Shown in pieces: positions 3,458 to 49,868 of a DNA stretch of 64,000 nt. Positions within the stretch are counted from its first letter, which is position 1. Every line of letters starts with the position of its first letter. Source of the DNA: Candidatus Iainarchaeum sp. (GTDB taxonomy: Archaea; Iainarchaeota; Iainarchaeia; Iainarchaeales; Iainarchaeaceae); the NCBI GenBank assembly GCA_043812975.1, contig JBDRLP010000027.1, positions 52,111 to 116,110 of the forward strand. The letters are read 5' to 3'. The notes below the pieces were generated by a model, which was given only the letters and a program-made list of their open reading frames with translations, ran no database searches and was not told the DNA's origin. The translations under genes were made by a program, and so were the position numbers.

Positions 3458-4497
3458 TTTGAATTCCTCATAATCAACAATAAGTCTTTTCCAAGTTTTT
3501 TCTTTTTCACAATTCGTATTTTTAAAGTCTTTTTGAGTTTAAACGCCTTTAAACCCTGTTTAATTTCTCTGTCAGCAATAATAAAAACCAATCTATCAAA
3601 CATTTTTTTTTCTAATAATTCTGAAGCAAGTCTGTTTCCTGGTTCAATCAAAACTGTTTTGATTCCAAAAGAATAAAGCTTTCCAAAAACATCATCCAAA
3701 TCAACCCCCTTCTTTGAATCTTTTACAGTAACAACCTTTGCACCTTTCTCAAGTAACTTTTTGACTTTATTTTTCGGAGCTTTTTTTGTACAGAAAATAA
3801 TTATAGTTCCTTTTTCAGAAAACAATTTAGAATTCAAAGGGATTCTTGCTTTCGAATCAAGCACAATCCGTACAGGATTTCTTCCCTTTCTCACACTCAA
3901 TTTTGGGTTATCTTTCAAAACAGTATTGATTCCAACAAGTATTGCATTATTTTGTGTCCGCAGTTTCTGAACAAATTCTAATGCTTGTTTTCCCGAAATT
4001 TTCTTTTTTTCCCTGTTTCCGAACGAAATAAATCCGTCATTGCTCATAGCAATTTTGATTGTTATTGTTGGGGTTTTAGTCTCACAATAATTTGTTATGT
4101 AGAAGTCATATAGTTTTTTAGCTTCTTTTTCATTTGTAATCTTTACAATAATTCCGTGTTTTCTTAATTCTTTAACTCCGTTTCCTGATTCTTTGTTTGG
4201 GTCTCGCCAAGCAATAAAAACACGCTTAATTCCGGCTTCGATAATAGCTTTTGTACAGGGGGATTGCTTTCCATAATGATTACAAGGTTCAAGTGTCACA
4301 AAAAGGTCTGCTCCTTTGGCCTTTATGCCTGCTTTTTCAAGTGAGGTAGTCTCAGCATGTTTACCCCCAAATTGCTCATGAAACCCTTTTCCAACTACTT
4401 TTCCTTCCTTAACAACAATCGCTCCAACCATTGGATTTGGCCATGCATCTTTTCCTTTTTTGGCTAGTTTAATAGCTTCTGGCATGAAATTTTTCAT
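3454..4497 (-). CDS. ribD: Riboflavin biosynthesis deaminase/reductase RibD (CMP/dCMP-type deaminase plus RibD C-terminal reductase domain)
   Basis: HAE...PCxxC zinc-deaminase motif (HAETTSL...LEPCNHYGKQSPC) followed by a reductase-like C-terminal domain. Confidence 0.7.
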   Translation of the reverse strand: MKNFMPEAIKLAKKGKDAWPNPMVGAIVVKEGKVVGKGFHEQFGGKHAETTSLEKAGIKAKGADLFVTLEPCNHYGKQSPCTKAIIEAGIKRVFIAWRDPNKESGNGVKELRKHGIIVKITNEKEAKKLYDFYITNYCETKTPTITIKIAMSNDGFISFGNREKKKISGKQALEFVQKLRTQNNAILVGINTVLKDNPKLSVRKGRNPVRIVLDSKARIPLNSKLFSEKGTIIIFCTKKAPKNKVKKLLEKGAKVVTVKDSKKGVDLDDVFGKLYSFGIKTVLIEPGNRLASELLEKKMFDRLVFIIADREIKQGLKAFKLKKTLKIRIVKKKKLGKDLLLIMRNSK

Positions 4498-5324
4498 TAA
4501 AATCCTCCGGCTAATAAAAGACCCAGTTCAGGAAAAGCAAATGCCAATAAAACCCCTAAAAAAATAAAAACACCAAATCTAGGAAGATTCCTGTAAACAA
4601 AAATTTCTTTAATTCCTTTTTTTTCAAGTTCTTTTTTTTCTTTTTCCCCATAAACTCCTTTGAAGCCTTTCCCAAATTTTTCCCTTTCTTTTTCACTCAT
4701 AAAATCAAATGCAATTATTTCATCTTCCTCAATGTCTTTCAATTTTATTTTTTTGAGAAAAAATTCTTTTCTGATTCCTTTTTCAAATGCAATAAAAAGA
4801 AGTCCAAAACTAAGAGGCAGTCCGAACATAAGCAAATAATTTATTGAAACAAAACCTGTTTTTGAAAGAACAAACAAATAAACAATCAAAATTACTAGGA
4901 AACCAAGTGCTCTCATTATCCCTTGTTTGTTATACTGAAAGTTAATGCCTTTTCTGAAATATTTTATCATGTAATAAGTTGAAAGAAAAATTATTGAAGT
5001 TAAAGCAGATAAAAGAACCGCTTGAATAATGAAAACGCTATTGTTGAAGAAAGGCAAAGCCAAAGCAATTCCTGTGTAAAGCTTTACATCGCCACCGCCG
5101 ATTTTTCCTGTGTAATAGAGCGCATAACCAATTCCGAAAACTAATAATCCTAAACCTATCCCTAAAAATTCTTGTTCAATAAGGTTCATGAACAAGCCAA
5201 AAACAATTAGCGGGATTGTTATCCAGTCATAAATGTAACCGGTTTTAAAATCAACATAACCCCCGACTCCCGCGGCAAGAAGTATCGCTAGTTGTCTTAG
5301 TAAAATAAGTTCCATGTTTATCAA
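4497..5324 (-). CDS. Archaeal type IV prepilin/preflagellin peptidase (A24 family, PibD/FlaK/EppA-like)
   Basis: Polytopic membrane protein with GGGDVKL motif (second catalytic Asp of the A24 GxGD peptidases) and an early Asp-containing loop; class III signal-peptide substrates are present in the same window. Confidence 0.65.
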   Translation of the reverse strand: MINMELILLRQLAILLAAGVGGYVDFKTGYIYDWITIPLIVFGLFMNLIEQEFLGIGLGLLVFGIGYALYYTGKIGGGDVKLYTGIALALPFFNNSVFIIQAVLLSALTSIIFLSTYYMIKYFRKGINFQYNKQGIMRALGFLVILIVYLFVLSKTGFVSINYLLMFGLPLSFGLLFIAFEKGIRKEFFLKKIKLKDIEEDEIIAFDFMSEKEREKFGKGFKGVYGEKEKKELEKKGIKEIFVYRNLPRFGVFIFLGVLLAFAFPELGLLLAGGF

Positions 5325-13189: not shown

Positions 13190-13816
13190 TTATTCCACTA
13201 CTGTCATTTTTACATTATCGAATATTGTCGAATCGGGCCCCCCATAGAATGTTGGAAATAACCAAACTCTTATGCAATTTGCTCCTGCCGGAACAAGGTA
13301 AGTGAACTCTTTATTTTGCCACGTATTATTGGTTGTGACTTCTCCAGCAGTCCCGGAGTTTCCTGCTCCGCAGCTTCTAACCATAACTAATGCTTCTGTT
13401 GGCCCTCCTACAGTTCCTTGTTTATATGAAAAGTTTACTTTTACTGTTTTTCCATATAGTTCATTCAAATCATAATCAGTCAAAATAATCGCCCCGCCTG
13501 ACGATATAGGAATAATTTCAACTGCATAGTTTCCGTATGGAGTATTAGTGCTCTGTACTGCCGTTACACCAGAGAGTAGGTCCCAGTAATCCGGGTAAGT
13601 TGTAAGCGTCCAAGTTTCGAAGCTTGAGTTTTTAAGAAAATTTGTTGAAACTCCTGCGGCTTCTCGTATTTTGTCGAATGCTGTTGTTGCTGATGTTGTG
13701 ACTTGTGTTTCTCCTGTTCCTGCTATGCTTAGTATTAGTGTGATTACGATTACGGCTACGAGTACTGCTCCGCCTATGAGTAGTAGGTATTCTAGTGCTC
13801 CTTGTGCTTTTTGCAT
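13190..13816 (-). CDS. Type IV pilin-like protein (class III signal peptide) with a C-terminal CBM/jelly-roll-like domain, paralog 1
   Basis: N-terminus MQKAQGALEYLLLIGGAVLVAVIVI... (archaeal prepilin K-A-Q-G/ALEYLL motif plus hydrophobic helix); C-terminal beta-rich domain with NSSFETW...W pattern reminiscent of CBM4/9. Confidence 0.7.
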   Translation of the reverse strand: MQKAQGALEYLLLIGGAVLVAVIVITLILSIAGTGETQVTTSATTAFDKIREAAGVSTNFLKNSSFETWTLTTYPDYWDLLSGVTAVQSTNTPYGNYAVEIIPISSGGAIILTDYDLNELYGKTVKVNFSYKQGTVGGPTEALVMVRSCGAGNSGTAGEVTTNNTWQNKEFTYLVPAGANCIRVWLFPTFYGGPDSTIFDNVKMTVVE

Positions 13817-13861: not shown

Positions 13862-14485
13862 TTATGTTTTAACTAATTTTATATCATCAAAATAAACAGT
13901 TCCGTTTGGAATTGTTGAACCTAAATTGTCCCACTTGATTTCCACAGTAATGGTTGCTCCTGCTGCTGTGCAGGTTACAGGCCCAGAACCATCAGTCCAT
14001 ACATTTGGAAAGCTGCTGGTCATCCAGTCCAGAGATCTGTAACCCTCAGTACAGGAATTACTAAAAGCAATGCGTGCACTTCCGCCTATAATATTTGGTT
14101 TGGTCCATCCTGATAAAGCATATGTATCTCCGGCTGTGACATTAAGTGTTTGGGATGCATAACCATAAGAAGAACCCGAACCATCATGAGTCATTTTCAA
14201 AGAACTGTTTCCAGTTCTGCGGTCATCTGTTGAAGAGGAAACACTTATTCCTCCTCCTGTAAGCCAACTACTCAATCCGCTTTCAAAGCTTCCGTTAGCC
14301 AAGAGATTATTGCTACCGCCGCCTGCGGCTTCTCGTATTTTGTCGAATGCTGTTGTTGCTGTTGTTGTTACTTGTGTTTCTCCTGTTCCTGCTATGCTTA
14401 GTATTAGTGTGATTACGATTACGGCTACGAGTACTGCTCCGCCGATTAAGAGTAGGTATTCTAGTGCTCCTTGTGCTTTTTGCAT
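13862..14485 (-). CDS. Type IV pilin-like protein with a C-terminal CBM-like domain, paralog 2
   Basis: Identical N-terminal 55 aa; C-terminal NGSFESG...W...YFDDIKL pattern typical of CBM_4_9-like beta-sandwich domains. Confidence 0.7.
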   Translation of the reverse strand: MQKAQGALEYLLLIGGAVLVAVIVITLILSIAGTGETQVTTTATTAFDKIREAAGGGSNNLLANGSFESGLSSWLTGGGISVSSSTDDRRTGNSSLKMTHDGSGSSYGYASQTLNVTAGDTYALSGWTKPNIIGGSARIAFSNSCTEGYRSLDWMTSSFPNVWTDGSGPVTCTAAGATITVEIKWDNLGSTIPNGTVYFDDIKLVKT

Positions 14486-14525: not shown

Positions 14526-15239
14526 TTAGGTCTCTGTTACTTTCACATTATCATAATCAATTGTTTGAGCACCGTAACTTAATAGTCCGATTCCGCCTGT
14601 AGCATGTCCTGTAAAATTATCTTCTCCTGCATAAACCCCGTTTACATATAATTTTACGTTTTGTCCTATTACTACCAGTTTTATGCGGTAAGTTGTTCCG
14701 TTAACCCAAGCCGCTCCGGTTATTGGGTCAGTAAGATCCACAATTTGACCAGTACTCCAATCGTAGAGCCTCCAATAATTCCAGGCATAATACCTGTACA
14801 ACAACATCGAGTTTGTGCTTCCTGAAGTATTAGAATTTCTGTAAACTGCGCCCATATAACTTGTTCCTGAAACTGGGGTAAAATCAAATTCAAAAGTATG
14901 ATCGCCATACGATCCTGTGAGATCCTGTGCAAATTTCCAACCGTCTGCTGTTGCAGCATGCCTGAACTTTCCTCCTGTAACACTCCAGATTATATTTGAC
15001 CCAGTAGTGGTCCAAACAGGATTAGATGTGTAATCCCCATCACTGAAATTATCAAAAAAACTTGCCGTTCCTCCCCCTGCGGCTTCTCGTATTTTGTCGA
15101 ATGCTGTTGTTGCTGATGTTGTGACTTGTGTTTCTCCTGTTCCTGCTATGCTTAGGATTAGTGTGATTACGATTACTGCTACGAGTACTGCTCCGCCTAT
15201 GAGTAGTAGGTATTCTAGTGCTCCTTGTGCTTTTTGCAT
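14526..15239 (-). CDS. Type IV pilin-like protein with a C-terminal concanavalin A-like lectin/LamG-like domain, paralog 3
   Basis: Identical N-terminal 55 aa; C-terminal domain resembles LamG/ConA-like lectin folds (YRIKLVVIGQNVKLYVNGVYAGED...IDYDNVKV). Confidence 0.7.
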   Translation of the reverse strand: MQKAQGALEYLLLIGGAVLVAVIVITLILSIAGTGETQVTTSATTAFDKIREAAGGGTASFFDNFSDGDYTSNPVWTTTGSNIIWSVTGGKFRHAATADGWKFAQDLTGSYGDHTFEFDFTPVSGTSYMGAVYRNSNTSGSTNSMLLYRYYAWNYWRLYDWSTGQIVDLTDPITGAAWVNGTTYRIKLVVIGQNVKLYVNGVYAGEDNFTGHATGGIGLLSYGAQTIDYDNVKVTET

Positions 15240-18281: not shown

Positions 18282-18387
18282 TGCGGGCGCCGAGAATCGA
18301 ACTCGGGCCACAACCTTATTGCAAATAATCTTACTTAGTTTCGATTCTTTTTGGCAAGGTTGCGTACTACCGCTATACTACGCCCGC
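18282..18387 (-). tRNA. tRNA-Gly (anticodon GCC) with a roughly 33-nt intron at the canonical 37/38 position
   Basis: Acceptor GCGGGCG/CGCCCGC, anticodon stem CAACC/GGUUG flanking UUGCCA + intron, T arm CCGAG-UUCGAUU-CUCGG; 105 nt in total. Confidence 0.8.
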
Positions 18388-30055: not shown

Positions 30056-30316
30056 TTATTTGAAGCTTTTGAACCATTTTTCGTATTCTTTGTGATTTTT
30101 AAAACACCTAATAATGTAAAGTGTCTCTTCTTCAAAATTATAAATGAGTCTTGCTTGTTTTGTTACTTCTTCAACAAAGTAGGGCATACCGTGCTTTAAG
30201 TGTCTTTTGAAGGGGCTTTTGAATATTTTTTCAGCGTGTTTTATGAACTGTTGTCTCAGGGAATTATCTATTTTTTCTAAGTCACTGAGCGCATTCTTAG
30301 TGTAATAAATTTTCAT
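30056..30316 (-). CDS. RelE/ParE-family type II toxin
   Basis: About 86 aa basic protein with a RelE/YoeB-like pattern, immediately downstream (5-bp gap) of a small antitoxin-like gene. Confidence 0.6.
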   Translation of the reverse strand: MKIYYTKNALSDLEKIDNSLRQQFIKHAEKIFKSPFKRHLKHGMPYFVEEVTKQARLIYNFEEETLYIIRCFKNHKEYEKWFKSFK

Positions 30317-30320
30317 TTAA

Positions 30321-30566
30321 TCACAGGCCAAACTTTTTTTTCACTTCCTCGTGCGTAAAAGTTTTTGTTTTGCCTGAGTGGATTCCTGCCATTTCAGCAT
30401 CAATTCCCTTGTTTACAAGAATCACTTCTTCCCTTTCTTTTTCATAAGCCTTTGCTTTTCTTTTCAAATCCAAATACTCCTTTTCAGGAATAGTAACGAT
30501 ATTACTCATACTAACCATTTGTGCATCACTACCAATATAAGAATTACTTTTTCGGTTTAAAAACAA
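30321..30566 (-). CDS. Putative antitoxin (the internal start at 30518 is also possible)
   Basis: Small acidic/charged protein (VTIPEKEYLDLKRKAKAYEKEREE) directly upstream of the RelE-like gene. Confidence 0.5.
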   Translation of the reverse strand: MFLNRKSNSYIGSDAQMVSMSNIVTIPEKEYLDLKRKAKAYEKEREEVILVNKGIDAEMAGIHSGKTKTFTHEEVKKKFGL

Positions 30567-34190: not shown

Positions 34191-35276
34191 ATGAATATGT
34201 CTAAAGTGATTGATTCTGCGGTTGAAACAATCCATTCAGGAGAACAAAGAAAAAAACTGGTTACTGAAAAGCTCACTCCGTTAAAATATAAGAAATTTTC
34301 TTCTCAGGAGCTCCCGGAAAAAGTATTGGTTCTTCCTGTTGAAAAGTGGATTCCCGATTGTATAATTGGAGGGGTGGATTCTGGTTTTGTTGCAAAGCGC
34401 CTTGCGTCAGTTGACCTTGTTCTGATTAGAGCTATGGGTGTCTGCTTTGATTACAAAAAGGGCATTGTGGATAAAGCCAATTATTATCCTGGTTATTTTC
34501 AGTTTCCGGAACCACATTTAAGCAATAATGCATTGGAAGAAGATGAGGCTGAGCAAAGCAAATCATTAATGCGTTTAAAAGAAGAAGTTAAAGCGTCAAA
34601 AAAATTAATTGAAGAGCATTCTCCGAAATATTTGTTTATTGATGGTTCTATTGTTCCGCAGTACCAAGACAAACCAAGAAAGGAATCTAAGTTAACTGAT
34701 AATTATATTAATATTATTCAGGAGTTTGAATCTTTTTATGAATTGGCTGAAAAAAATAATTGCACATTAATTTCTACGGTGGAAGATTCTAGAGGTTCTA
34801 GGTTCAGACAGATTATTCAGGATGAAATTCTTGAGAAGGAAAAAATTCTTGAAAAAGAAAAATTAGATGGTTTGTTTGATTCTTCTTTTTTGGATTATTT
34901 TTTGAACGTAGGAGAACGCTCAAGTTGTTTTACTTACACGAAAAATATTAAACAGCATCCTGTTCTTTCTGATTTCAATGAAAAGTGGAGCAACCATATT
35001 TTTGGTTTGTACATTAAACCTTCTAATTATGACAAACCCTTGAGGGTTGAATTCATCACTAAAGGGGGCATAAAAGAAAAAGCAGATGAAGTCGCAAAAG
35101 TCGCGTTTGCTTTAAGTTCATTACATCGCGAGTATGCTTATCCTTCAATTTTAATAGAGGCGGATATGCATGCTAAATTAAAGCAGGATGAGATTGAAAT
35201 TGTTTATAATAAAATAATGGATAAATTGGGTAATTCAATTAAACTAAAAATGAGGCGTGATAATAGGCCTTTTTAG
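34191..35276 (+). CDS. nurA: NurA 5'-3' nuclease (DSB end resection, HerA partner)
   Basis: NurA-domain motifs IGGVDSGF and YLFIDGSIVPQY; HerA is encoded 1.2 kb downstream. Confidence 0.75.
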   Translation: MNMSKVIDSAVETIHSGEQRKKLVTEKLTPLKYKKFSSQELPEKVLVLPVEKWIPDCIIGGVDSGFVAKRLASVDLVLIRAMGVCFDYKKGIVDKANYYPGYFQFPEPHLSNNALEEDEAEQSKSLMRLKEEVKASKKLIEEHSPKYLFIDGSIVPQYQDKPRKESKLTDNYINIIQEFESFYELAEKNNCTLISTVEDSRGSRFRQIIQDEILEKEKILEKEKLDGLFDSSFLDYFLNVGERSSCFTYTKNIKQHPVLSDFNEKWSNHIFGLYIKPSNYDKPLRVEFITKGGIKEKADEVAKVAFALSSLHREYAYPSILIEADMHAKLKQDEIEIVYNKIMDKLGNSIKLKMRRDNRPF

Positions 35277-35801
35277 GTGATTTTCATGGTATTTGAACGT
35301 TTCTCAGAAGTTGATTCAACTGTTTTCAGAAGTTCGATTCCGCGAACAAATGAAGACGTGGATTTTTTGGTTTCTAAAGGGATTTCAGAAGTGATTTCTT
35401 TTGAACTTGTTAATAAATCATTGAGCGCCTATGCGGAATCAAAAGGAGTTAAGTTTCATGATTTTTCAACTATTGATCAGGATTATTTGCCTGATAAGAG
35501 AGAGGCAACTGCGTTTTTCAAAGTAATAAAAAACGCTGAAGTTTCAGGAAAGAAAGTTTTGCTTCATTGCAGTGCGGGTTTGCAGAGGTCTGGTGTGATG
35601 GTTGCTGTTTATTTGGTTGGAAAAGGAATGCATCCACTTCAAGCATACCAATTCGCAGGCACTGCCGAAGTTACAATTAAAGAACCATTGATGCGTGAGG
35701 CGAATGCGTTAAAAGATCTTTACACTAATATTAGAAAAGAGAGGCCTGGTTCAAGAAAATTGAGACATGTTGTAAAAAAACCAAGGAGAAAATTGAAATG
35801 A
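35277..35801 (+). CDS. Dual-specificity/protein-tyrosine phosphatase (CX5R)
   Basis: HCSAGLQRSG catalytic P-loop. Confidence 0.75.
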   Translation: MIFMVFERFSEVDSTVFRSSIPRTNEDVDFLVSKGISEVISFELVNKSLSAYAESKGVKFHDFSTIDQDYLPDKREATAFFKVIKNAEVSGKKVLLHCSAGLQRSGVMVAVYLVGKGMHPLQAYQFAGTAEVTIKEPLMREANALKDLYTNIRKERPGSRKLRHVVKKPRRKLK

Positions 35802-35914
35802 TTTGTCCAAAATGCGGAAATGATTCTTTTGAAGAGCTTCCTTTAGAAAAAGGAAAACAAAAAAGATGCAGAAAGTGCGGTTTTGTGGGAAATCCGATGA
35901 GTGATTTCACGTGA
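35798..35914 (+). CDS. Small zinc-ribbon protein (38 aa)
   Basis: CPKCG...CRKCG double CxxC; overlaps the neighbouring genes (ATGA/GTGA overlaps). Confidence 0.45.
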   Translation: MICPKCGNDSFEELPLEKGKQKRCRKCGFVGNPMSDFT

Positions 35915-36093
35915 CTCAAAAAGAAAAAAATAAAGTAACTTTTTGTTCAAGCTGCGGTTCTACAAATGTAAAACCAAGTTATGCAATGGGAACTATTGAT
36001 AATCGTGTTGAGTGCTTGGATTGTAAAACTTTAGAGTTTCCTGTTGAGGCTGAGGAAAAGTTCAGGAAAAAGTTTATGGAGAGGAAAAAATGA
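35911..36093 (+). CDS. Small zinc-ribbon protein (60 aa, GTG start)
   Basis: CSSCGS...CLDCK zinc ribbon. Confidence 0.45.
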   Translation: MTQKEKNKVTFCSSCGSTNVKPSYAMGTIDNRVECLDCKTLEFPVEAEEKFRKKFMERKK

Positions 36094-36482
36094 GCAGATC
36101 GCCTTTTTATTATGAGCACTCCCCAAAACTATTTTCAGGAAGGATTTCTTTAATAAAATCCGATTTAGATTATTTGAATAGTAAAGGAATCAAAAAATTA
36201 GTCTTATTACAGGATGTGAATGATAATATATTGAATGCTCTTAGAACTGCCGGTTTTGCCGTTAAAGTTTTTCATTTAGGTACAAATCCCCCTTATGATT
36301 CAGAAAAATTAAGAGTGGTTTCTCGCGCTATGGCTTCTGCTAGAGTTTCTTTGCAAAAAAATGAAGGAGTGGCTGTTTTATGCAATCAAGGATTTCGTTC
36401 ATTTGACATTTGTAAAGAAATTCATAATCCTATTGACAGGAAAAGATTAACCAAAACTCGAATTAGGCGGTTGAGAAAATGA
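36090..36482 (+). CDS. Phosphatase-like domain protein (degenerate Cys-based P-loop)
   Basis: VAVLCNQGFRS resembles a CX4-5R phosphatase/rhodanese-like loop; translationally coupled between the Zn-ribbon gene and herA. Confidence 0.35.
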   Translation: MSRSPFYYEHSPKLFSGRISLIKSDLDYLNSKGIKKLVLLQDVNDNILNALRTAGFAVKVFHLGTNPPYDSEKLRVVSRAMASARVSLQKNEGVAVLCNQGFRSFDICKEIHNPIDRKRLTKTRIRRLRK

Positions 36483-39400
36483 CCAAAAACGAAGAAATAG
36501 GAACAGTAATAAGCACTCCAGATGGTCCTTCTCCGAGTGCTTTGGATTTTGTTGTTTATTCAGGAACACTTCACAGAGGAATGTTTGTTGAATTAGATTA
36601 TGCTGAAGGCACTCTTGTTGCTTTGGTTACTGATGTTGTTAAAACAAATCGTTATTTTGAAAGAGTTGAATCAGTAAAGGAATTCGAATCCTCAGGAACA
36701 AAATTATTTGAACAATTCCCTACTCATGAATGGGAATTCCTTTTAGCAAAAACAAGACCGCTTGGAGTTTACAATAAAGGGATGATTAAGCGTTCTAGTT
36801 TTCCTCCTTCTCCTGGGGCTAAAGTAAGGGTTGCTTCCAAAGAAACTCTTGAAAACTTTTTAGGTTTAGATTTGGAAAAAGGTTTAATGCTTGGAGAAAT
36901 TGAACATCACGATGTTTCAGTAAAATTGAACATGTCAAGATTATTCCAGAAACATTTAGCTATTTTGGCTATGAGTGGAGCAGGTAAGTGTACAAGTTTT
37001 GATGCTGAAATATTGCTTGAAAATAAGGTGCAGGTAAAAATTGGCGAATTAGTTGATTCAATATTAGAGAAAAATAAAAGAGTTGAAGATGGTGTTGAAT
37101 TTTGGGAAGGGGATTTGGATCTAAAAACTTATTCTTTTAATGGAGAAAAAATTGTTCCTGCGGAGGTCAAAGGAGTTTACCGAAGGAAGTCTCCGCATGA
37201 ATTGATTAAGGTCACAACTCGGAGTGGTAGGATTTTGAAGGTTACTCCTGAACACTTAATCCCTATGTTTAGTGGTTCTATTGAGTGGTTGCATGCAAAG
37301 GATTTGGTTAAAAAAAACTACTTGATTTTTCCGAGGATAAATTGGAGTGGTTCTGAGCAAGTAATGGATTTTTCTTCAGTTGTTGGCGAGAAAACCATAG
37401 TTCGCGGTGGTTTTGCGGAGTCAAAGAAGTCCGGTAAAAAGGTTAGGTTATTGCAGAGTGTTGACAAGGATTTTGTCAGATTGTTTGCTTATCTTTTGGC
37501 GGAAGGACATAATACTTGCGGTTCTCAAATTTGGTTTAGTAACGAAGATGAGTTTGTACGAAAGGATTTTTCGAAGCTGGTTTTTGATAAGTTTGGTTCT
37601 CGTGTCAGTGTAGCTAAACATGGGGGCGATTTGATTTTTTATAATAAGTTGTTGGCTCAGGCTCTTTCAAAGAAAGGGTTTACTAATTCTAGTTGGACTA
37701 AATTTGTTCCTCCTGAGATTTTGCGGAGCAGACGTGAAGTTTTGCTTTCTTTTCTTTCTGTTTTTATTGATTGTGACGGGCATATAAACAAAAGCAAGTC
37801 TGAGTTGGAGATAACTTTAGCGAGTAAAAAACTTATTTTTGGTATTGAAGAAATCCTCACAAAGCTGGGTATTGTTTCTTTTAGAGGGATCAAAAAGACT
37901 GATGGCAAGGTATATCAAAGATTGTTTGTTAGAGGGGCGGAATTGAAAAAGCTGAAGGATCTCGATCTTTTGATTGGTTATAAAAAGAAGGCTCTTGAGA
38001 AATGGATTGCCTCTAAAAACAACCCTAATGTTGATGTTGTTCCCAATTTACATTCTCATTTGTTTGAGTTGTTGTCTTTGTTGAGAATGCCTCAGCCACA
38101 GGCTGAGTCGTCAGGCATTAACAATTATCTTTACCGCCGAGATAACCCTTCTAGGGAAAATTTGAGTGTTTTAATTTCTATTTTTGAGCGAAGATGTGTT
38201 GAGGTAGAAAAGGCAACTGAGGACGCTTATACTCTTTATAAAAGCATTCCTAAAGTTAGCGAAGAAGATGCTTTAGTGGTTGTTCAGGAAGCTTATTCCA
38301 GTGGTTTGGATTTTAATAAAATCTCTTCAGGAAGTGGTGTTTCAAAAACTACTGCAAGAAGGGTTGTTAGAGGTATCACTTCTCCAAAAAGTAGTGTTTT
38401 TTCTTTGGCAAAAAACATTTCTCAGTCTAGGTATGCTGAATTTGGATTCGTTGAAAACTTCGACGGGAATTCAGCTTTAACTTCTATTAAGGAAATTTGT
38501 GAGAGGCTTGGTCATGAGACACAGACTTTTTGTGTTTCAAATGGGGTTTACAAGAATTTTCTATATTCTCATTCAAAAGATAGGGGTGTTGCTGACCATT
38601 CTATTGTACTCAAGTTGTCAGAGTCTCTTTGTGAAATTGCGAGAAAATCTGAGAAAAATTTGGGCTTAGCTAAGGGAATTATTTTTGATTTGAAGAAAGC
38701 GATTGATTTGAATGCTTTTTTTGACGAGATTGTGAAAGTTGAAAAAGTTCCTTCTGAAAACGAGTTTGTTTATGATCTTTCTGTTGATAATTCTAGTTTT
38801 GTTGCTAATAATTTGTTGATTCATAATAGCTACTTAACTTCCGTTCTCTTTGAAGAACTTTTAGAAAGAAAAAAAGAAGACGGAAGACTGGCTTTGATTG
38901 TAATGGATACTCATGGAGAATATAGGAATTTTGCTGAACCAGTAAAAGATTCAAAGAGTAAAGATTTTTCATCCAAAACAAGATTTGTTAAAGCAAGCGA
39001 AATTAGCATCGGTGTTCCTAAGCTTTCTATCGGAATGCTTTCCATTATGATTCCTGGATTATCAGGGCCGCAGAAGAGAGACCTTGCGAGAGTTCTTGAA
39101 AAATTAAGAAGAGAAATGAAAGACGGTTTAGGCCCCTATGATTTTGGTGCTGTAAAATCTGAAATATTTAAGGATGAGGAAATGAAAGAGTCAACAAAAT
39201 TGGCTTTGACTGGATGGATAATTTCATTAGAACAGTTGAAACTTTTCGGAAAAACTGATAATCCAAGTATTAATGATCTTGTAAAACCAGGACAACTTAC
39301 AATTGTTGATTTGAGTGATGTCATTGAAATGAAAAAGAAACAGATTATTGTTTCTTATTTTGCTTCGAAACTTTTCTTTGAAAGGCGCCAAAAAAGAATT

Positions 39401-39859
39401 GCTCCTTTTTCTCTTGTTTTGGAAGAAGCACATCAGTATTGCCCTGAAGGCACTTCAAAAGAAGGGGCTATTTCCAGAGGTATTATTGAAACAATTGCAA
39501 GGGAAGGAAGAAAGTTCGGTGCTTCAATTTGTTTAATTTCTCAGAGGCCGATTAATCTTTCAACAACTGCATTAAGTCAATGCGGCACTCATATAATTCT
39601 CAGAGTAACAAATCCTTATGATCTTGATCACATTGGTAAAAGCAGTGAAGGTCTTGACAGGCGTTCGCTGGACATGATTACTTCTCTAAGAACGGGAGAA
39701 GCTCTTCTTGTTGGTGAAGCCGTAAATTACCCTACTTTTTTCAAGGTTCGAAAAAGGACTTCTCAGGATTCTATTCATGAAAAGTCTCTGGAGGAGGCTT
39801 CTGTTGAGTTTGAGGAAATAAAGGAAGCATCACAGAAGGATATTGAAGATTTGATGTAA
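36479..39859 (+). CDS. herA: HerA-type hexameric DNA translocase/helicase, interrupted in its Walker A motif by a 613-aa intein
   Basis: HAS-barrel N-terminus; Walker A AILAMSGAGK|C...intein...HN|S; Walker B LVLEEAH; arginine-finger region; the extein is about 513 aa. Confidence 0.85.
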   Translation: MTKNEEIGTVISTPDGPSPSALDFVVYSGTLHRGMFVELDYAEGTLVALVTDVVKTNRYFERVESVKEFESSGTKLFEQFPTHEWEFLLAKTRPLGVYNKGMIKRSSFPPSPGAKVRVASKETLENFLGLDLEKGLMLGEIEHHDVSVKLNMSRLFQKHLAILAMSGAGKCTSFDAEILLENKVQVKIGELVDSILEKNKRVEDGVEFWEGDLDLKTYSFNGEKIVPAEVKGVYRRKSPHELIKVTTRSGRILKVTPEHLIPMFSGSIEWLHAKDLVKKNYLIFPRINWSGSEQVMDFSSVVGEKTIVRGGFAESKKSGKKVRLLQSVDKDFVRLFAYLLAEGHNTCGSQIWFSNEDEFVRKDFSKLVFDKFGSRVSVAKHGGDLIFYNKLLAQALSKKGFTNSSWTKFVPPEILRSRREVLLSFLSVFIDCDGHINKSKSELEITLASKKLIFGIEEILTKLGIVSFRGIKKTDGKVYQRLFVRGAELKKLKDLDLLIGYKKKALEKWIASKNNPNVDVVPNLHSHLFELLSLLRMPQPQAESSGINNYLYRRDNPSRENLSVLISIFERRCVEVEKATEDAYTLYKSIPKVSEEDALVVVQEAYSSGLDFNKISSGSGVSKTTARRVVRGITSPKSSVFSLAKNISQSRYAEFGFVENFDGNSALTSIKEICERLGHETQTFCVSNGVYKNFLYSHSKDRGVADHSIVLKLSESLCEIARKSEKNLGLAKGIIFDLKKAIDLNAFFDEIVKVEKVPSENEFVYDLSVDNSSFVANNLLIHNSYLTSVLFEELLERKKEDGRLALIVMDTHGEYRNFAEPVKDSKSKDFSSKTRFVKASEISIGVPKLSIGMLSIMIPGLSGPQKRDLARVLEKLRREMKDGLGPYDFGAVKSEIFKDEEMKESTKLALTGWIISLEQLKLFGKTDNPSINDLVKPGQLTIVDLSDVIEMKKKQIIVSYFASKLFFERRQKRIAPFSLVLEEAHQYCPEGTSKEGAISRGIIETIAREGRKFGASICLISQRPINLSTTALSQCGTHIILRVTNPYDLDHIGKSSEGLDRRSLDMITSLRTGEALLVGEAVNYPTFFKVRKRTSQDSIHEKSLEEASVEFEEIKEASQKDIEDLM
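36989..38827 (+). mobile_element. Intein (Hint domain plus LAGLIDADG homing endonuclease) inside herA
   Basis: Starts with Cys right after GAGK, ends ...VANNLLIHN followed by Ser; LAGLIDADG-like blocks LFAYLLAEGHN and LSVFIDCDGHIN. Confidence 0.8.
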
Positions 39860-41121: not shown

Positions 41122-42618
41122 ATGCTCCATAATACGCGATTATTCCTGAGCAAGGTTAACTATAACTCTGAGAAAAGACAGATTACTGTAGAGTTTTCAA
41201 AGAAAAATCAGAAATCTTCAAAGAAGTACTCATTTTTTCCAAAAATGTATCTTTCTCTGAAAAAAATTTCTGAAAAACATTTACTTGATGCTTTAGCTGA
41301 TTATGATGTAAGAAAATTAAAAATAGATTTTAAAGAAAATACAGCAACTATTTTTGCAGCAACATTTTCTGATTTGAAGAAAGTAAATAATCTTCTGAAT
41401 AATTTTTTTAATTTACATTCAAATTTAATAGAACCTGAAAGGCAATTTCTGCTGGAAAAGAACTGGAGTTATTTTGATTTTTTTGATTTTTCTTATTCAG
41501 AACCCCAACAAATCCACACAACTGAATTTCCTGATGTTTCAATGGACTTCCTTTCAGATTCTTTCAAAGAAACTATTGCTTCTTTATTGTTGAACAACAG
41601 GTCTCTTGCTAAAGAAACAATTGAAAAAATCGTTTTTTCCAAGCTGTTAAGAATTCCTTTAATAGGCCGAGAAGAAGATAAGTCTCTTGAGGAAATTTTT
41701 ATTGAAAATATTTTTTTCCTTAGCGAAAAACCAATTTCTATAGGGGGGTATAGAAACAAATCTTATTTTAGGCAAATCCATAAAAAATCAGTTATAGATT
41801 TTTCAAAAATGGTTTCAGTAATGGCTTCAAAGCCGTTCAATAATCTTGGTTTTGAAACCATTAATTGCAGCTGTTGCAAACCATGGGATAAAGAAGCAAA
41901 AAACATTTTGCCTTCTTCTTTAGTCAAGGTTAATTTTTTGAGGGAAGCTTTTTACTTTGACTCTGTTTCAAGTAACTGGGCTGATGCTTATCATTTTTCT
42001 AATAAGGAAATGCAACAGCGTGAAAAAAGAAAAAGGGAATATTTTTTGGATTTTTATCCTTCAGGCCCGTTTTCAAGAAACTCGTCTGAAAATATACTTT
42101 TAGCTGATGCATTAAATCTTGAACAAAAAGGATTGGTTAAAATAGTTTCTCATGAAAATCCTTCCTGGTTTTGCCTGAAAAAGGAAAGTGCTTTTTCTTC
42201 AGAAGTCAATCGTTTGTATGAATCTCTCATTACTCTTAATTCAGTTGTTGAGAAGGAAAGTAATTCGGTTGTTGCTTCTGCTGGTTTGTTTTTCTCTCAG
42301 TCCCTTGAATCTAGTCCTGGGCATCATTATAGAAAAATTTTAGATAAAACAACTTCTAGGCTTTTAGCTTCTTTTCCAGGGTTGCTTACAAATTCTTCCG
42401 GAAGGTTTTTTGATAAGAATTTTGCAATTGCTTTGGAAGCTATTAATAGCCTTATTTTGAAGGATTTTGAAGAAATTGCCAAAAACTCCAAAACAAGGGT
42501 TACTTTCAAGGATTCTATTGCTTTGGTTGATTCTTCTTCTTTCATGTCTGCCTCTAAAGAGTTCAGAGACCTCTATAAGGTTGACAAACGCTTGTTGAGC
42601 GTCTCCAAAAGCTTTTGA
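41122..42618 (+). CDS. Hypothetical 498-aa protein (no recognisable domain)
   Basis: A long ORF in an AT-rich genome; shares the upstream TTCGCACCGGCAA motif with nurA. Confidence 0.4.
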   Translation: MLHNTRLFLSKVNYNSEKRQITVEFSKKNQKSSKKYSFFPKMYLSLKKISEKHLLDALADYDVRKLKIDFKENTATIFAATFSDLKKVNNLLNNFFNLHSNLIEPERQFLLEKNWSYFDFFDFSYSEPQQIHTTEFPDVSMDFLSDSFKETIASLLLNNRSLAKETIEKIVFSKLLRIPLIGREEDKSLEEIFIENIFFLSEKPISIGGYRNKSYFRQIHKKSVIDFSKMVSVMASKPFNNLGFETINCSCCKPWDKEAKNILPSSLVKVNFLREAFYFDSVSSNWADAYHFSNKEMQQREKRKREYFLDFYPSGPFSRNSSENILLADALNLEQKGLVKIVSHENPSWFCLKKESAFSSEVNRLYESLITLNSVVEKESNSVVASAGLFFSQSLESSPGHHYRKILDKTTSRLLASFPGLLTNSSGRFFDKNFAIALEAINSLILKDFEEIAKNSKTRVTFKDSIALVDSSSFMSASKEFRDLYKVDKRLLSVSKSF

Positions 42619-42889: not shown

Positions 42890-43082
42890 ATTGGGTAAAG
42901 CAGTCCCTCAGAATATTAAAAGTAAGGCAAATATACTTTTGCAAACTTATCCTAATGATGTGCCAAATGATTTTGATTCTATTAAGAAATTTATTGATAC
43001 TTTTAAAATGCCGATGAGTAAATCACAGAGAAATCTTGTTGCTGGTTTTTTGGCTAGAAAAAAGTCTCAGTTAAAAGCCTAG
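42867..43082 (+). CDS. rps17e: 30S ribosomal protein S17e (may start at TTG 42891)
   Basis: GKAVPQNIKSKANILLQTYPNDVPNDFDSIKKFIDTF...SKSQRNLVAGFLARK matches S17e. Confidence 0.7.
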   Translation: MKKLRWIRLGKAVPQNIKSKANILLQTYPNDVPNDFDSIKKFIDTFKMPMSKSQRNLVAGFLARKKSQLKA

Positions 43083-45089
43083 TACTTTTGTAGGTGCATC
43101 TTTTTCTTTTTCTCTTTCTAATGAATATAATTTTCCTGATGCTGCATTTTCCATTTCTTTATCGTGGGTGATAATAAAAATTTGTTCAATCAATTCAGGT
43201 AAATGATTTCTCATTGTTTCGCTTAATTCCTTAACCGCGTTCACGTCTAAATTGTGGGTTGGTTCATCCAGAATAATCCAGCCTAAGTTTTGGGTTAATA
43301 CGAGGGAGATTGCAATTCTCAGGGTTATTGCTGCTGCACTTCTTTCTCCGCCTGAAAGTATTCCTTCTACTCTTGCCCATTGTTCGTTTCTTTGTTTAAC
43401 CATTACTTCGTAGCTTCCTTCTTCCACGATTATTTTTACACTCAAAAAATCTTTGTAAGGGTAAATCCTTGGCCAGATTTCTCCCATTGCCTGATTAACT
43501 GTTTCCACCATCATGTTTCTTAGTTCTCCTTGCGTGGATTTTAATGCCGAAGTAAAGATTGCTAGTTTTTCTGTTGTTTTTTCGTTTTCCTTAACTTGGG
43601 TTTCAAGTTCTTTAATCTGATGTTCTATTTCTTTTATTCTTTTTACACTTTCATTGAGTTCTTTTAATAGTTCTTTTCCGCTTGAAATTTCAGTTCTGAG
43701 TTCAGCACTCTTTTCTTTTAAACCTAAAAACTCTTTTTCGTGCTTTTCGTGTTCTTTTTCATCAAACCCTGTTTTTTTCATCATTTCTCTTACTTTTTCT
43801 ATTTCTTTCTCAAGGTCATTTTTTTGTTTTTCTTTTTCACTTAATTCTGCAGCAATTTCCTTCAGTCTTTTAAGTTCGTTAAGTTGCTTTTCAATAGTTT
43901 CGCCTTTCTTTTCAATTTTTCCCAGTTCTTCTTTCTTTTCCTTCAATTCTTTGATTTCCTTTTCCAAGTCTGAATTAAGTTCTTTTGTTTTTTTCAGTAT
44001 TTTTTCTTCTTCATCTTTAAGCTCCTGCTCAAGCTTTTCTTTATCGTGCTCATTTAATGGTCTTTTACATATCGGGCAGTCTGATTCCAGTTTTTGTGCA
44101 TTAGAAACGTTTTTTGAATTAGAATTAAGCAGATTGTTCTGTACAGCTATTTCTTCTTTAATTTTAGAAACCTTTCTCTCAAGTTTTTCATTTTCTTTTT
44201 CAAGTTTTTCATTTTCCTTTATTTTTCCTTCAATTTTTTCGTGTTTTGTGTCTTTTAGTTTTTCCCTGCCTGTTTTCAGTTGTTCTGTTAGGGATTCTAT
44301 TTTTGCTTTGCTTTGAATTTCAAGTTCTTTAAGGAATTTATTTTCTTTTTCTTTTTCTTCAAGCTGTTTTAGTGTTTTTTCCTTTTCTTTTATTTGTTTT
44401 TCCAGTTCAGAATTTTCTTTTTCCTTATCATTCAATTCTTTTTCCTTTTTTGAGATCTTTTTTTCATATTCTTCAAGTTCTTTAGGATTGTTTTTCCTTT
44501 TTTGTTCCTGTAAAAACTTTTTCCTGTCCTCAATAATGCGTTTGAGTCTGTTTGCAAGTGTTACAGAATTTGTCCTTACTTTTTCGTATTTATCCAGTCC
44601 TAATAATTCATCAAATTTTTCTTTTCTTTGTGCAGGAGTCAGCTTTAGAAAAAAGTCGATTTGGTTCTGCTCTGAATAAATAGCTCTGCTGAATAGTTCG
44701 TAGGAAACTTCCAGTATTTCCTCAATTTTTTTTGTTGTTTCAGTTGTTTTTGGCCCTGCCAGTATCTTTCCGAATTCCCTTAATGTTCCTTCATTTATTC
44801 CTTTTCTTTTTACAATTCTCTCAACCGAATATTCTTTTCCATTATAATCAAATTCAAGTGTTATTTTTGCGGTTTCCTGTTTGCTTGGTTTTGCCATTAT
44901 GGTTTCTTCAAGAGTAACTTTTCTTGCTGCAAGTGTCGGGAATGTTCCGTATAATGCAAAAGAAATTGCATCCATTATGCTCGACTTCCCACTTCCCATT
45001 TTTCCTACTATTACATTGGTTCCTTTGGAAAAATCAAGTTCTGTATTATAATGGGTTTTCCAGTTCTCGAGTTTAATGGTTTTTATCAT
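43071..45089 (-). CDS. rad50: Rad50 DSB-repair ATPase (SMC-like) with a CxxC zinc hook
   Basis: Walker A GKMGSGKSSIMDA, long coiled coil with hook CPICKRPL, signature LSGGERSAAAITLRIA, Walker B IILDEPT. Confidence 0.85.
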   Translation of the reverse strand: MIKTIKLENWKTHYNTELDFSKGTNVIVGKMGSGKSSIMDAISFALYGTFPTLAARKVTLEETIMAKPSKQETAKITLEFDYNGKEYSVERIVKRKGINEGTLREFGKILAGPKTTETTKKIEEILEVSYELFSRAIYSEQNQIDFFLKLTPAQRKEKFDELLGLDKYEKVRTNSVTLANRLKRIIEDRKKFLQEQKRKNNPKELEEYEKKISKKEKELNDKEKENSELEKQIKEKEKTLKQLEEKEKENKFLKELEIQSKAKIESLTEQLKTGREKLKDTKHEKIEGKIKENEKLEKENEKLERKVSKIKEEIAVQNNLLNSNSKNVSNAQKLESDCPICKRPLNEHDKEKLEQELKDEEEKILKKTKELNSDLEKEIKELKEKKEELGKIEKKGETIEKQLNELKRLKEIAAELSEKEKQKNDLEKEIEKVREMMKKTGFDEKEHEKHEKEFLGLKEKSAELRTEISSGKELLKELNESVKRIKEIEHQIKELETQVKENEKTTEKLAIFTSALKSTQGELRNMMVETVNQAMGEIWPRIYPYKDFLSVKIIVEEGSYEVMVKQRNEQWARVEGILSGGERSAAAITLRIAISLVLTQNLGWIILDEPTHNLDVNAVKELSETMRNHLPELIEQIFIITHDKEMENAASGKLYSLEREKEKDAPTKVLGF

Positions 45090-48290: not shown

Positions 48291-49868
48291 GTGGTTTTAA
48301 TGGCATTTCAGTTTGCGGAAAAAAAAGGAAACAAGATTGATTCTTATGGTCAAACGGTTATCCATGAAGGATTCCCGTTTTTCTTTTATGATGTAAAAGA
48401 ACCAAAGTTTAATGAAGAAGAAAATATCATGAAGGAATCTTTGATTAATCTTATTATGGGCCGCTGGAGTTTTGATGAGGTTCAGGGGCAGCTGGAAAAA
48501 CTTTTTTCAAAACAGTTTATGGAGCAGTTCAGGGAAAAAATAATCAAGCCGATAACTTATAGCGGTGCGATGGAATATTTGTTGCCAACTGATGATTATA
48601 ATACTTTAAAATTAACTCTCATAACTTTGTTTAAGGAATTTTTACCGGTTGTAAAAAATCATTCTTTATTAGCAGACAAAATCCTTGGGGACTCTATCGG
48701 TTACGGGAAAATAAATCCTTTTGTTATGGATGAAAGTTTAGAAGAAGTCATGGTTAATTCTTATGACAAGAACGTTTTTGTTTTTCACAAAAAGTACGGC
48801 CATTGTAAAACTAATATAGATTTTTCAAACAAAAAAGCCCTTGATAATTTGCTGCAAAAAATTGCTCACACTATAGGAAAAAAGTTTGATGCTGACAATC
48901 CTTTATTGGACGCACGTCTTCCTGACGGTAACAGAGCTAATGCAACTTTTGCTTATGTAACTCCATTTGGCCCAAGCCTTACAATCAGGAAATTTTCCAG
49001 TGTTCCTCTTAGTATTGTTGATTTAATTTCCAATAATACGATTTCAAGTGAATTGGCAGCATTTCTTTGGGTTATGGTTGAGGGTATGGGTGTTGAGCCA
49101 ATGAATCTTATTGTTACCGGCGGTTCTGGTTCAGGAAAAACAACTACTTTGAATGCTTTGACTGCTTTTGTAAGATACCCTGAAAGAATTATTTCCATTG
49201 AAGATACGCTTGAACTGCGTTTGTTGGGGCGGCAAAATTGGGTTCAGATGGAATCCAGGCCAGCAATGAAAGGACAGGAAGGTGTTACCATGGATGACTT
49301 GTTAAAAAATGCTATGAGAATGAGGCCTGATCGCATTATTGTTGGGGAAGTAAGAGGAAAAGAAGCAGAAACTCTCTTTGTTGCAATGGACACCGGCCAT
49401 AAAGGATCAATGGGAACATTGCATAGTAATTCTGCCAAAGAAATGCTTCTAAGATTAAAATCAGAACCTATGGGTGTTCCTGATTCTTTAATTCCTTTAC
49501 TTAATCTTATTATTGTTCAGTACAGGCTTTATGTTAAAGGGAAAGGCATCGAGAGAAGAGTAATATCTGTTACTGAGGTAAGTTCTATGGATAATCATGC
49601 TTTGCTCAGTAATGTGTATGAGTGGGACCGCGGAACTGATTTTGTGAAAAGAACCGATGTTCCGATGAAACTTATGGAGACCTTATCTGAAAAAACATTA
49701 AAAACTAAAAAAGAGGTTGAAATGGAGATTAATGTTAGAAAAAGGATTCTTGAATGGATGATGAAGAACGATATCCATTTCCAGCCTGAAGTAGAAGTGG
49801 TTGTTCAGCAGTATTATTATAATCCTGAAGCTCTTTTAGAAAAAGTTCTTGCTGAAGATTCTCAATAA
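48291..49868 (+). CDS. Type II/IV secretion-system ATPase (FlaI/PilB/TadA-like) - putative pilus assembly ATPase
   Basis: Walker A LIVTGGSGSGKTTTLNAL, Asp box, Walker B, His box (GHKGSMGTLHSNSAKE). Confidence 0.8.
   Translation: MVLMAFQFAEKKGNKIDSYGQTVIHEGFPFFFYDVKEPKFNEEENIMKESLINLIMGRWSFDEVQGQLEKLFSKQFMEQFREKIIKPITYSGAMEYLLPTDDYNTLKLTLITLFKEFLPVVKNHSLLADKILGDSIGYGKINPFVMDESLEEVMVNSYDKNVFVFHKKYGHCKTNIDFSNKKALDNLLQKIAHTIGKKFDADNPLLDARLPDGNRANATFAYVTPFGPSLTIRKFSSVPLSIVDLISNNTISSELAAFLWVMVEGMGVEPMNLIVTGGSGSGKTTTLNALTAFVRYPERIISIEDTLELRLLGRQNWVQMESRPAMKGQEGVTMDDLLKNAMRMRPDRIIVGEVRGKEAETLFVAMDTGHKGSMGTLHSNSAKEMLLRLKSEPMGVPDSLIPLLNLIIVQYRLYVKGKGIERRVISVTEVSSMDNHALLSNVYEWDRGTDFVKRTDVPMKLMETLSEKTLKTKKEVEMEINVRKRILEWMMKNDIHFQPEVEVVVQQYYYNPEALLEKVLAEDSQ

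Follow-up and report, generated by a model that had tools for sequence, protein, structure and literature searches.

The stretch of archaeal DNA analyzed here, 64,000 nucleotides of Candidatus Iainarchaeum sp. (contig JBDRLP010000027.1, positions 52,111 to 116,110 of the forward strand; hereafter the window), contains a herA gene whose ATP-binding P-loop is split by a 613-amino-acid (aa) insert. We conclude with high confidence that this insert is a class-1 intein carrying a LAGLIDADG homing endonuclease, positioned between the Lys and Ser residues of the HerA Walker A motif. The precursor is encoded by a single uninterrupted open reading frame (ORF) (36479..39859, + strand, stop codon included; 1126 aa), of which the intein makes up aa 171-783 (nt 36989..38827, + strand), and removal of the intein leaves a HerA extein of 513 aa. 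Across the two junctions, marked by slashes here and below, the protein reads AILAMSGAGK/CTSFDAE...SFVANNLLIHN/SYLTSVLFEE, so that the insertion point has the form GAGK/C...HN/S. A preliminary description of the window had proposed the same intein with the same coordinates, lengths, canonical boundary residues (Cys1, terminal HN, and +1 Ser), and pair of LAGLIDADG blocks, all of which were borne out; a frameshift dividing the gene into two, which it had named as a possible refutation, is not present.

Anatomy of the interrupted HerA protein

The N-extein (36479..36988, +; aa 1-170) contains the HAS-barrel region and the first half of the Walker A motif, ending in AMSGAGK. The C-extein (38828..39859, +; aa 784-1126) starts at Ser+1, the serine of Walker A and at the same time the nucleophile for splicing; intein-free HerA structures align GSGKS at this position. 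When the exteins are joined in silico, both Walker A (SGAGKS) and Walker B (LVLEEAH, within 39407-39442 of the C-extein) are restored. The host protein is recognizable as HerA by a Pfam DUF87 match (1.5e-21) that is split around the insert, a weak HAS-barrel match, the nurA gene 1.2 kb upstream in the operon, and matches to PDB HerA structures, Sulfolobus 4d2i among them. At NCBI the precursor is deposited as MFH1391330.1, a "DUF87 domain-containing protein," with the intein unflagged.

Within the intein, secondary structure in an AlphaFold2 (AF2) model and block conservation delimit a Hint N-lobe (36989..37333, +; intein aa 1 to ~115) that begins with the block A Cys1 and includes block B, T-P-E-H, at 37235-37270. 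It is followed by the LAGLIDADG homing-endonuclease core (37466..37954, +; intein aa ~160-322), which is identified by Pfam, alignment to the intein TliVMA, family conservation, and Foldseek. LAGLIDADG motif 1 (37472-37516, +; FVRLFAYLLAEGHNT) has its catalytic Glu in LAEGH, and motif 2 (37742-37792, +; LLSFLSVFIDCDGHINK) has its catalytic Asp in DCDG. The AF2 model then shows an all-helical accessory domain (37976..38710, +; intein aa ~330-574, ~245 residues) with a conserved helix-turn-helix (HTH) at 38306-38380 (+; GVSKTTARRVVRGIT) and, farther along, a second, possibly Cro/C1-like region (38474-38575, +). The Hint C-lobe (38720..38827, +; intein residues 578-613) closes the insert with blocks F/G, VYDLSV...NNLLIHN.

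Several comparisons identify the insert as an intein. Pfam analysis of the precursor returned Intein_splicing (1.1e-17, aa 178-783) and LAGLIDADG_3 (1.1e-8). The closest PDB relatives are the V-ATPase subunit A inteins of Thermococcus litoralis and Pyrococcus horikoshii (E of 6e-27), in an alignment that covers the host "GK," the Hint N-lobe, both LAGLIDADG motifs, and then the C-terminal VYD...HN. The AF2 model, built from six input sequences (predicted local distance difference test score [pLDDT], 75), places a Hint N-lobe, an endonuclease core, an all-helical domain, and a Hint C-lobe in order. Searched against the PDB with Foldseek, this model matched TliVMA best (1e-20), along with PhoVMA, PI-TkoII, PI-PfuI, and PI-SceI; further matches were to mini-inteins, to the RadA, CDC21, and KlbA inteins, and to free LAGLIDADG enzymes. 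The Hint fold, the absence of which was to have spoken against an intein according to the preliminary description, is thus recovered by Pfam, PDB, and Foldseek comparisons. Together with blocks A, B, and F/G and an in-frame insertion at a site that is empty in orthologues, it corresponds to the features of a class-1 intein.

The empty site was found by the search for intein-less herA in relatives that had been suggested earlier. Homology of the spliced extein places the source organism in Candidatus Diapherotrites/Iainarchaeia (DPANN). About 3000 extein homologues were detected at E ≤ 1e-20, and among the best 120, which we inspected, ~110 are ~510 aa long and have no insert, while nine carry one. 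The closest intein-free orthologues (84% identical) read GAGK/SY at the junction, and in one of them, locus L087, the residues around the empty site are identical to those of the window (HLAILAMSGAGK/SYLTSVLFEE). Compared with the intein-free loci L087 and L001, the extein has a ratio of nonsynonymous to synonymous substitution rates (dN/dS) of 0.09-0.12. Such strong purifying selection indicates that HerA is functional, which implies that the intein would have to be removed from it efficiently.

Because the source is an uncultured, metagenome-assembled genome in which misassembly is possible a priori, one might instead read the insert as a lineage-specific HerA insertion domain, a gene fusion, an assembly chimera, or an insertion that turned herA into a pseudogene. 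This reading is already effectively refuted. The insert matches Hint and LAGLIDADG domains by sequence and by fold, is placed in frame at an exact residue boundary with the canonical C...HN/S, and has homologous inteins at the same site in independent contigs from other samples; flanking synteny is intact, and the extein is under purifying selection.

The P-loop intein family and other intein sites in HerA

HMMER, run exhaustively against 1.84 billion representatives, detected 1947 relatives at E ≤ 1e-3. All members of the top tier are in HerA/DUF87 proteins, with the intein ending immediately before DUF87 profile position 37. This HerA P-loop family comprises ~20 sequence clusters and forms a tight group of its own (E down to 1e-187), followed by a tier of MCM inteins at ~1e-47. 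One relative is labelled "intein/homing endonuclease" by JGI.

We extracted 21 members of the HerA P-loop family, including one from a GTDB genome (locus L059). Every one is inserted at G-x-G-K/C...HN/S, and the HN/S ending is kept in 21/21. Cys1, block B (T-x-E-H), LAEGH, DCDG, the HTH, and VYDL...HN are conserved in the family, with Cys1 and block B invariant or nearly so in the 19 members that are complete at the N terminus. Inteins of the family are 600-690 aa long; two mini-inteins at the HerA P-loop, P0115 and P0218 (162-168 aa), have lost the endonuclease.

The distribution of this intein is sporadic. When the 80 best HerA loci of GTDB species representatives were compared, the P-loop intein was present in just one, L059 (1/80), where it is 49% identical to that of the window, and L072 alone has a different intein, positioned after Walker B. 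Where both are present, extein and intein identities roughly covary (79/49, 73/51, 61/49, 62/40 ... 46/28%), a pattern that suggests largely vertical descent with losses.

HerA of Iainarchaeia has three intein sites, namely, site a (GAGK/S), site b (EEAHQF/C), and site c (LSQ/C), and DPANN HerA proteins offer at least three positions to inteins: the P-loop, a position after Walker B, and LSQ/C. The window herA is occupied only at site a and has the native Cys codons at site b (39440-39442) and site c (39581-39583). Site b holds a LAGLIDADG intein of ~336 aa (EEAHQF/CLSEDT...ITGN/CPE) in HerA alleles of ~850 aa, carried by P0003, P0018, P0061, P0072, P0083, P0095, P0098, and L072 (9105-10124). 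Site c (LSQ/CVSPDT...THN/CNTH) is occupied in L043 (about 3280-5100) and in P0131 (aa 1042-1536), a HerA with two inteins of which this is the second. The inteins at sites b and c look unrelated to the one at site a.

Comparison with known inteins

Next-tier relatives in the HMMER search are inteins in MCM, T2SSE/VirB11, AAA+, and SMC-like proteins, and nearly all of these sit directly after the Walker A Lys (GDPGxxK/C, GGTxSGK/C, GPPGCGK/C, and GPNGxGK/C or S). This shared location places the window intein in a clan that occupies one structural position of many P-loop ATPases. Clustering of inteins at P-loops is an established pattern (Novikova et al. 2016, PMC4760082; PMC8966425), and MCM-a, VirB11/KlbA-type, and RadA P-loop inteins likewise interrupt the Walker A motif of DNA-handling or secretion ATPases.

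By both sequence and fold, the best matches to the HerA intein are TliVMA and PhoVMA (PDB 7qss, 7qsu, and 7qst), which occupy the P-loop "VMA-b" site and are built from a HINT domain, a homing endonuclease (HEN) domain, and an accessory domain (PMC8966425). Like the HerA intein, they follow the Walker A "GK" immediately and combine HINT and LAGLIDADG domains with a helical DNA-binding accessory domain. They differ in host (V/A-ATPase subunit A), share ~25% identity with it, and are smaller (376-429 aa, versus 613 aa here); the HerA intein has a far larger accessory domain, of ~245 residues, with an extra conserved HTH. The VMA-b allele is defined by the P-loop of V/A-ATPase subunit A, while the host here is HerA/DUF87; the HerA and VMA-b inteins are homologues at analogous Walker A positions and not alleles of each other. 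PI-PfuI (in ribonucleotide reductase), PI-TkoII (PolB), and PI-SceI (yeast VMA-a) also pair Hint and double-LAGLIDADG domains with a further region for DNA recognition (Foldseek, 1e-8 to 1e-14) but are found in other hosts and sites, at 12-18% identity and with differently structured accessory domains.

HerA is not named as an intein host in the main text of the Novikova census (PMC4760082), and our literature search found no paper describing a HerA intein. Elements of this class are well understood, and the site is of the kind most typical for them; what the HerA intein adds is a new host and a new allele. The list of P-loop ATPases invaded at the Walker A "GK/S or T" junction gains HerA, the motor of archaeal end resection. 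The HerA P-loop family is homologous to the MCM, VirB11, and V-ATPase P-loop inteins but its HTH-bearing accessory domain is much larger, and it provides a natural test case for the published proposal that homing endonucleases are redirected to new hosts by their accessory domains (PMC8966425).

State of the endonuclease and signs of mobility

The endonuclease domain has the expected catalytic features. In an alignment with TliVMA, which is active, its LAEGH and DCDG sequences correspond to LIADG and VCDG; they form a double motif of two helices that each end in a catalytic Asp or Glu. In the AF2 model, residues 160-322 contain the helix and strand elements of a pseudo-dimeric LAGLIDADG core (pLDDT of ~75-90), which Foldseek matches to I-DmoI and I-Tsp061I. 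In the accessory domain, the HTH consensus GVSxTTARRVVRGIT is conserved across the family (the first HTH is deleted in P0122), and intein relatives give significant Pfam matches to HTH_3, HTH_23, or HTH_26. Compared with the L059 intein, the proportion of nonsynonymous differences (pN, 0.34) is lower than that of synonymous differences (pS, 0.82), with dS saturated. Since the catalytic acidic residues and the HTH have been kept among inteins that are only 28-68% identical, we argue that the nuclease is probably functional now or was until recently. Removing the intein from the gene reconstructs the predicted homing site, GCTATGAGTGGAGCAGGTAAG/AGCTACTTAACTTCC, or, as a site of roughly 60 bp, GCTATTTTGGCTATGAGTGGAGCAGGTAAG/AGCTACTTAACTTCCGTTCTCTTTGAAGAA.

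Several points weigh against an intein that splices, cleaves, and has recently moved. Splicing and DNA cleavage are activities predicted from motifs. The AF2 model is of moderate confidence, with the final 12 intein residues below a pLDDT of 50, and in the window accessory domain itself the HTH matches are weak and below significance (E of 0.09-0.3). The empty sites of the closest relatives differ from the reconstructed homing site at many third codon positions, which bears on whether those alleles could be cleaved. Finally, close relatives of the intein elsewhere, which would be a sign of recent transfer, were scarce: a word-indexed search gave only 4 matches, a scan of JGI metagenome contigs only two loci at 22-23% identity, and two scans of IMG/VR viral contigs no match. 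No near-identical copy was thus found in another extein background or in the metagenome and viral contigs searched.

Composition and flanking identity were also compared. As a gauge of foreign origin, the GC content at third codon positions of the intein (0.308) is the highest of the genes measured but lies within ~2 standard deviations of the window gene mean (0.253; standard deviation, 0.030). A co-conversion tract was considered because the N-extein is 92% identical to its L001 counterpart and the C-extein only 80%, but this drop is not diagnostic and the candidate was rejected, as HerA residues 171-300 are intrinsically variable (L001 and L087 are also only 67% identical to each other there). 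On a finer scale, N-extein residues 61-140 are nearer to L001 (88-95%) than to L087 (78-85%; region 36479-36988), and the first ~80 residues after the intein are nearer to L087 (88-95%) than to L001 (82%; region 38828-39250). This mosaic could be a faint trace of recombination near the insertion site.

Proposed cycle and alternative readings

From the conserved residues, we propose that herA is translated as a 1126-aa precursor that would be unable to bind ATP because its P-loop is physically split. Splicing would begin with an N-S acyl shift at Cys1, followed by transesterification onto the Ser+1 hydroxyl and by cyclization of the terminal Asn with assistance from the penultimate His. An O-N shift would then rejoin GAGK-S to give a normal 513-aa HerA, which would work with the co-transcribed NurA in DNA-end resection. 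The nested endonuclease, aided by the HTH-bearing accessory domain, is predicted to recognize herA alleles that lack the intein and to cleave them where the P-loop is encoded. Repair of the cleaved allele by recombination would then transfer a copy of the intein to it (homing).

The most serious alternative is that the intein still splices while its endonuclease is inactive, making it a passenger that is inherited vertically and is decaying toward a mini-intein rather than an element that is mobile at present. We consider this somewhat unlikely, although it accounts for a good deal: P0115 and P0218 document decay at the same site, the covariation of extein and intein identities fits mainly vertical descent, near-identical copies were not found elsewhere, and the related PhoVMA is a documented degenerate endonuclease (PMC8966425). 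It is harder to reconcile with the conservation of the catalytic acidic residues, both LAGLIDADG helices, and the HTH at 28-68% identity and with an intein pN well under pS. In addition, patchy presence, with empty alleles in the closest relatives, is typical of a cycle of homing and loss, the reading that we prefer.

A different view is that the host has co-opted the intein and uses it as a conditional switch through which an environmental or DNA damage signal gates the HerA ATPase and end resection. The Cys1 nucleophile is redox sensitive in principle, which counts in favor of such a switch. Conditional splicing of P-loop inteins has been described in RadA and DnaB (PMC4513877, PMC5790916, and PMC6195587), with the P-loop RadA intein of Pyrococcus horikoshii reported as a precedent (PMC4513877), and Novikova et al. 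make the case that P-loop inteins are selectively retained (PMC4760082). We nevertheless regard a switch as unlikely: the allele is rare and close relatives lack the intein, as would be expected of a selfish element more than of a regulator that is retained, and no sensor is indicated by the sequence.

Genes between nurA and herA

Upstream of herA lies a run of co-oriented genes whose order, as given in the preliminary description, is confirmed by their coordinates. The first gene is nurA (34191..35276, +; 361 aa; Pfam NurA, 1.1e-13), whose product is 94% identical to NurA of Iainarchaeum ARS1427. It is followed by a gene for a Cys-based dual-specificity/protein tyrosine phosphatase (PTP) (35277..35801, +; Pfam PTP-SAK, 1.4e-11; DSPc, 1.1e-8; NCBI start, ATG at 35286) with the canonical HCX5R(S/T) signature (HCSAGLQRSG) and a basic C-terminal tail. 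Next come two Zn-ribbon genes. The first (35798..35914, +; 38 aa; CPKC...CRKC; weak Pfam match to Zn_ribbon_TFIIB, 1.7e-4), recognized from its sequence, is conserved in L001, L059, and L087. The second (35911..36093, +; 60 aa; CSSC...CLDC) is the most widely conserved partner directly upstream of herA, and a local hidden Markov model (HMM) detects it beside herA in ~13 Iainarchaeia loci.

The last gene before herA (36090..36482, +; 130 aa; MFH1391329.1) had been described as a second phosphatase-like gene. It is indeed a PTP-family homologue (noncircular HMM, E of 6.9e-6; BLASTP to the PTP, 1e-4), but it is truncated and does not encode a CX5R phosphatase: in alignment, the Cys is kept within LCNQGFRS (CX4R, with no His), the downstream helices are gone, and a basic tail is retained. 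With a CX4R motif and nothing kept after the catalytic Cys but this tail, the paralogue is probably catalytically dead, a pseudo-phosphatase. It is a singleton cluster in a collection of 15 billion proteins and is absent from L087, L001, and L059.

The junctions between these genes are in line with the translational coupling that had been suggested: nurA and the phosphatase gene abut (TAG/GTG), and the four junctions after them have ATGA, GTGA, ATGA, and ATGA overlaps in order up to herA.

All PTP-like proteins of this spacer (the two in the window and those of L018, L021, L025, and L047), degenerate ones as well as those that look active, end in a strongly basic tail, such as KKPRRKLK, RIRRLRK, or PKRRRLK. 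These shared tails hint at nucleic acid binding or a common docking motif.

Gene order and spacer content across Iainarchaeia

The gene layout around herA in Iainarchaeia is conserved: nurA, small genes, herA, a Na/Ca exchanger gene, a gene for a 498-aa protein, rpoK, the S17e gene, rad50, and the EF-1beta gene. In the window, rad50 (43071-45089, −; 672 aa; Pfam AAA_23, SMC_N, and SbcC_Walker_B) is convergent with the herA-side genes, and the HerA, NurA, and Rad50 genes fall within 11 kb. The earlier placement of rad50 3 kb from herA on the other strand is therefore correct, and the same arrangement (~3 kb) is seen in nearly all Iainarchaeia loci examined. It was likewise correct that no mre11 is visible in the window, where neither Pfam searches of unannotated ORFs nor a GNH[DE] motif scan found an Mre11-type ORF. 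Within ±8 kb, no Mre11-like ORF was found in any Iainarchaeia locus, only in the two Undinarchaeota loci. These two, L046 and L050, are the only loci in which Mre11-sized ORFs (417 aa) appear. In more distant lineages, Aenigmatarchaeota and other DPANN archaea, a metallophosphoesterase of ~260 aa (D-x-H...GD...GNHD) is encoded directly upstream of herA on the opposite strand (L058, L067, L068, L071, L076-L078, L080, and L081).

The classical herA-mre11-rad50-nurA operon was described in archaeal hyperthermophiles (PMC2288612). The window locus resembles it in that HerA, NurA, and Rad50 are encoded close together and nurA and herA are co-oriented and translationally linked. It differs in having no mre11 nearby, in having rad50 on the opposite strand beyond four unrelated genes, and in the small Zn-ribbon and phosphatase-like genes between nurA and herA, and so lacks the four contiguous, co-oriented genes of that operon. 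The operon had been called unusual on these grounds. The classical order is indeed absent, but because the layout found here is conserved throughout Iainarchaeia (Diapherotrites) and is the norm in nearly all loci examined, its absence is a trait of the clade, and this genome is no exception within it.

The content of the nurA-herA spacer varies: many loci have no gene there, a Zn-ribbon gene adjoins herA in ~13, HAD-type hydrolase genes are present in ~12, and PTP-like genes are present in only 5. A check of phosphatase conservation beside nurA and herA found canonical HCX5R enzymes only in the window, L087-type contigs, and AR10. The orthologues in L087 and AR10 occupy the equivalent position and are 75% and 42% identical to the window enzyme, respectively; the second, PTP-like gene is specific to the window. 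Locus L087 has the order nurA-PTP-Zn1-Zn2-herA, with NurA and PTP both 75% identical to those of the window; the only things that the window has beyond this set are the 130-aa gene and the intein. Loci L001 and L059 have the order nurA-Zn1-Zn2-herA. In other Iainarchaeia, an HAD hydrolase of ~225 aa (FDLWNTLIP...MVGDSLRSD) replaces the PTP (L014, L017, L024, L040, L042, L044, L047, L048, and L063; also L019, L039, and L054). With either an HAD hydrolase or a PTP found there, two unrelated phosphatase-type folds recur at the same spacer position.

Variable cargo between nurA and herA resembles a defense island, and several of the best PDB and PADLOC matches to HerA come from defense systems, so the run from nurA through the Zn-ribbon and PTP-like genes to herA could be taken for an anti-virus defense module. 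We consider it very improbable that the locus serves defense rather than housekeeping DNA repair, because PADLOC matches only the generic HerA ATPase (none for NurA, the PTP-like pair, the Zn-ribbon protein, or the 498-aa neighbor) and because the locus is embedded in core genes whose synteny is maintained clade-wide (rpoK and the genes for S17e, Rad50, EF-1beta, and the CCA-adding enzyme).

A more speculative proposal, and in our view a long shot, is that the intein might be kept as a post-translational gate on double-strand-break resection, its splicing triggered by DNA damage, single-stranded DNA, or redox state like that of the RadA P-loop intein, that the spacer genes might form a hitherto unrecognized regulatory or end-cleaning layer for NurA-HerA, or both. 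If so, that layer would consist of Zn-ribbon proteins, a Cys-phosphatase, and a dead paralogue here and of HAD-type hydrolases in sister lineages, and it would serve a clade without mre11 next to rad50. The variable phosphatase and Zn-ribbon cargo is a lead, and only a lead, to accessory factors of archaeal DNA-end processing. Residual interest lies in this unexplained cargo, in the large HTH-bearing accessory domain, and in the three-site landscape of HerA inteins.

Searches of Pfam, PDB, and PADLOC gave no match to the 498-aa protein (41122-42618, +), whose gene keeps its place between those for HerA and Rad50 in nearly all Iainarchaeia loci (23-89% identity). The protein is a candidate for an uncharacterized repair-gene partner or may simply be a clade-specific core gene.

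Other features of the window

Elsewhere in the window, Rfam detects a 106-nt tRNA at 18282-18387 (−; 55.8 bits) that is not called by ARAGORN and is probably an intron-containing archaeal tRNA. Three tandem paralogues (13190-13816, 13862-14485, and 14526-15239, −) have identical N-terminal 40 residues (MQKAQGALEYLLLIGGAVLVAVIVITLILSIAGTGETQVT), a shared N terminus resembling a class III signal peptide (type IV pilin-like). The window also contains a gene for a T2SSE-type ATPase, at 48291-49868. Two adjacent small ORFs (30056-30316 and 30321-30566, −), encoding 86 and 81 aa, have a toxin-antitoxin-like arrangement.

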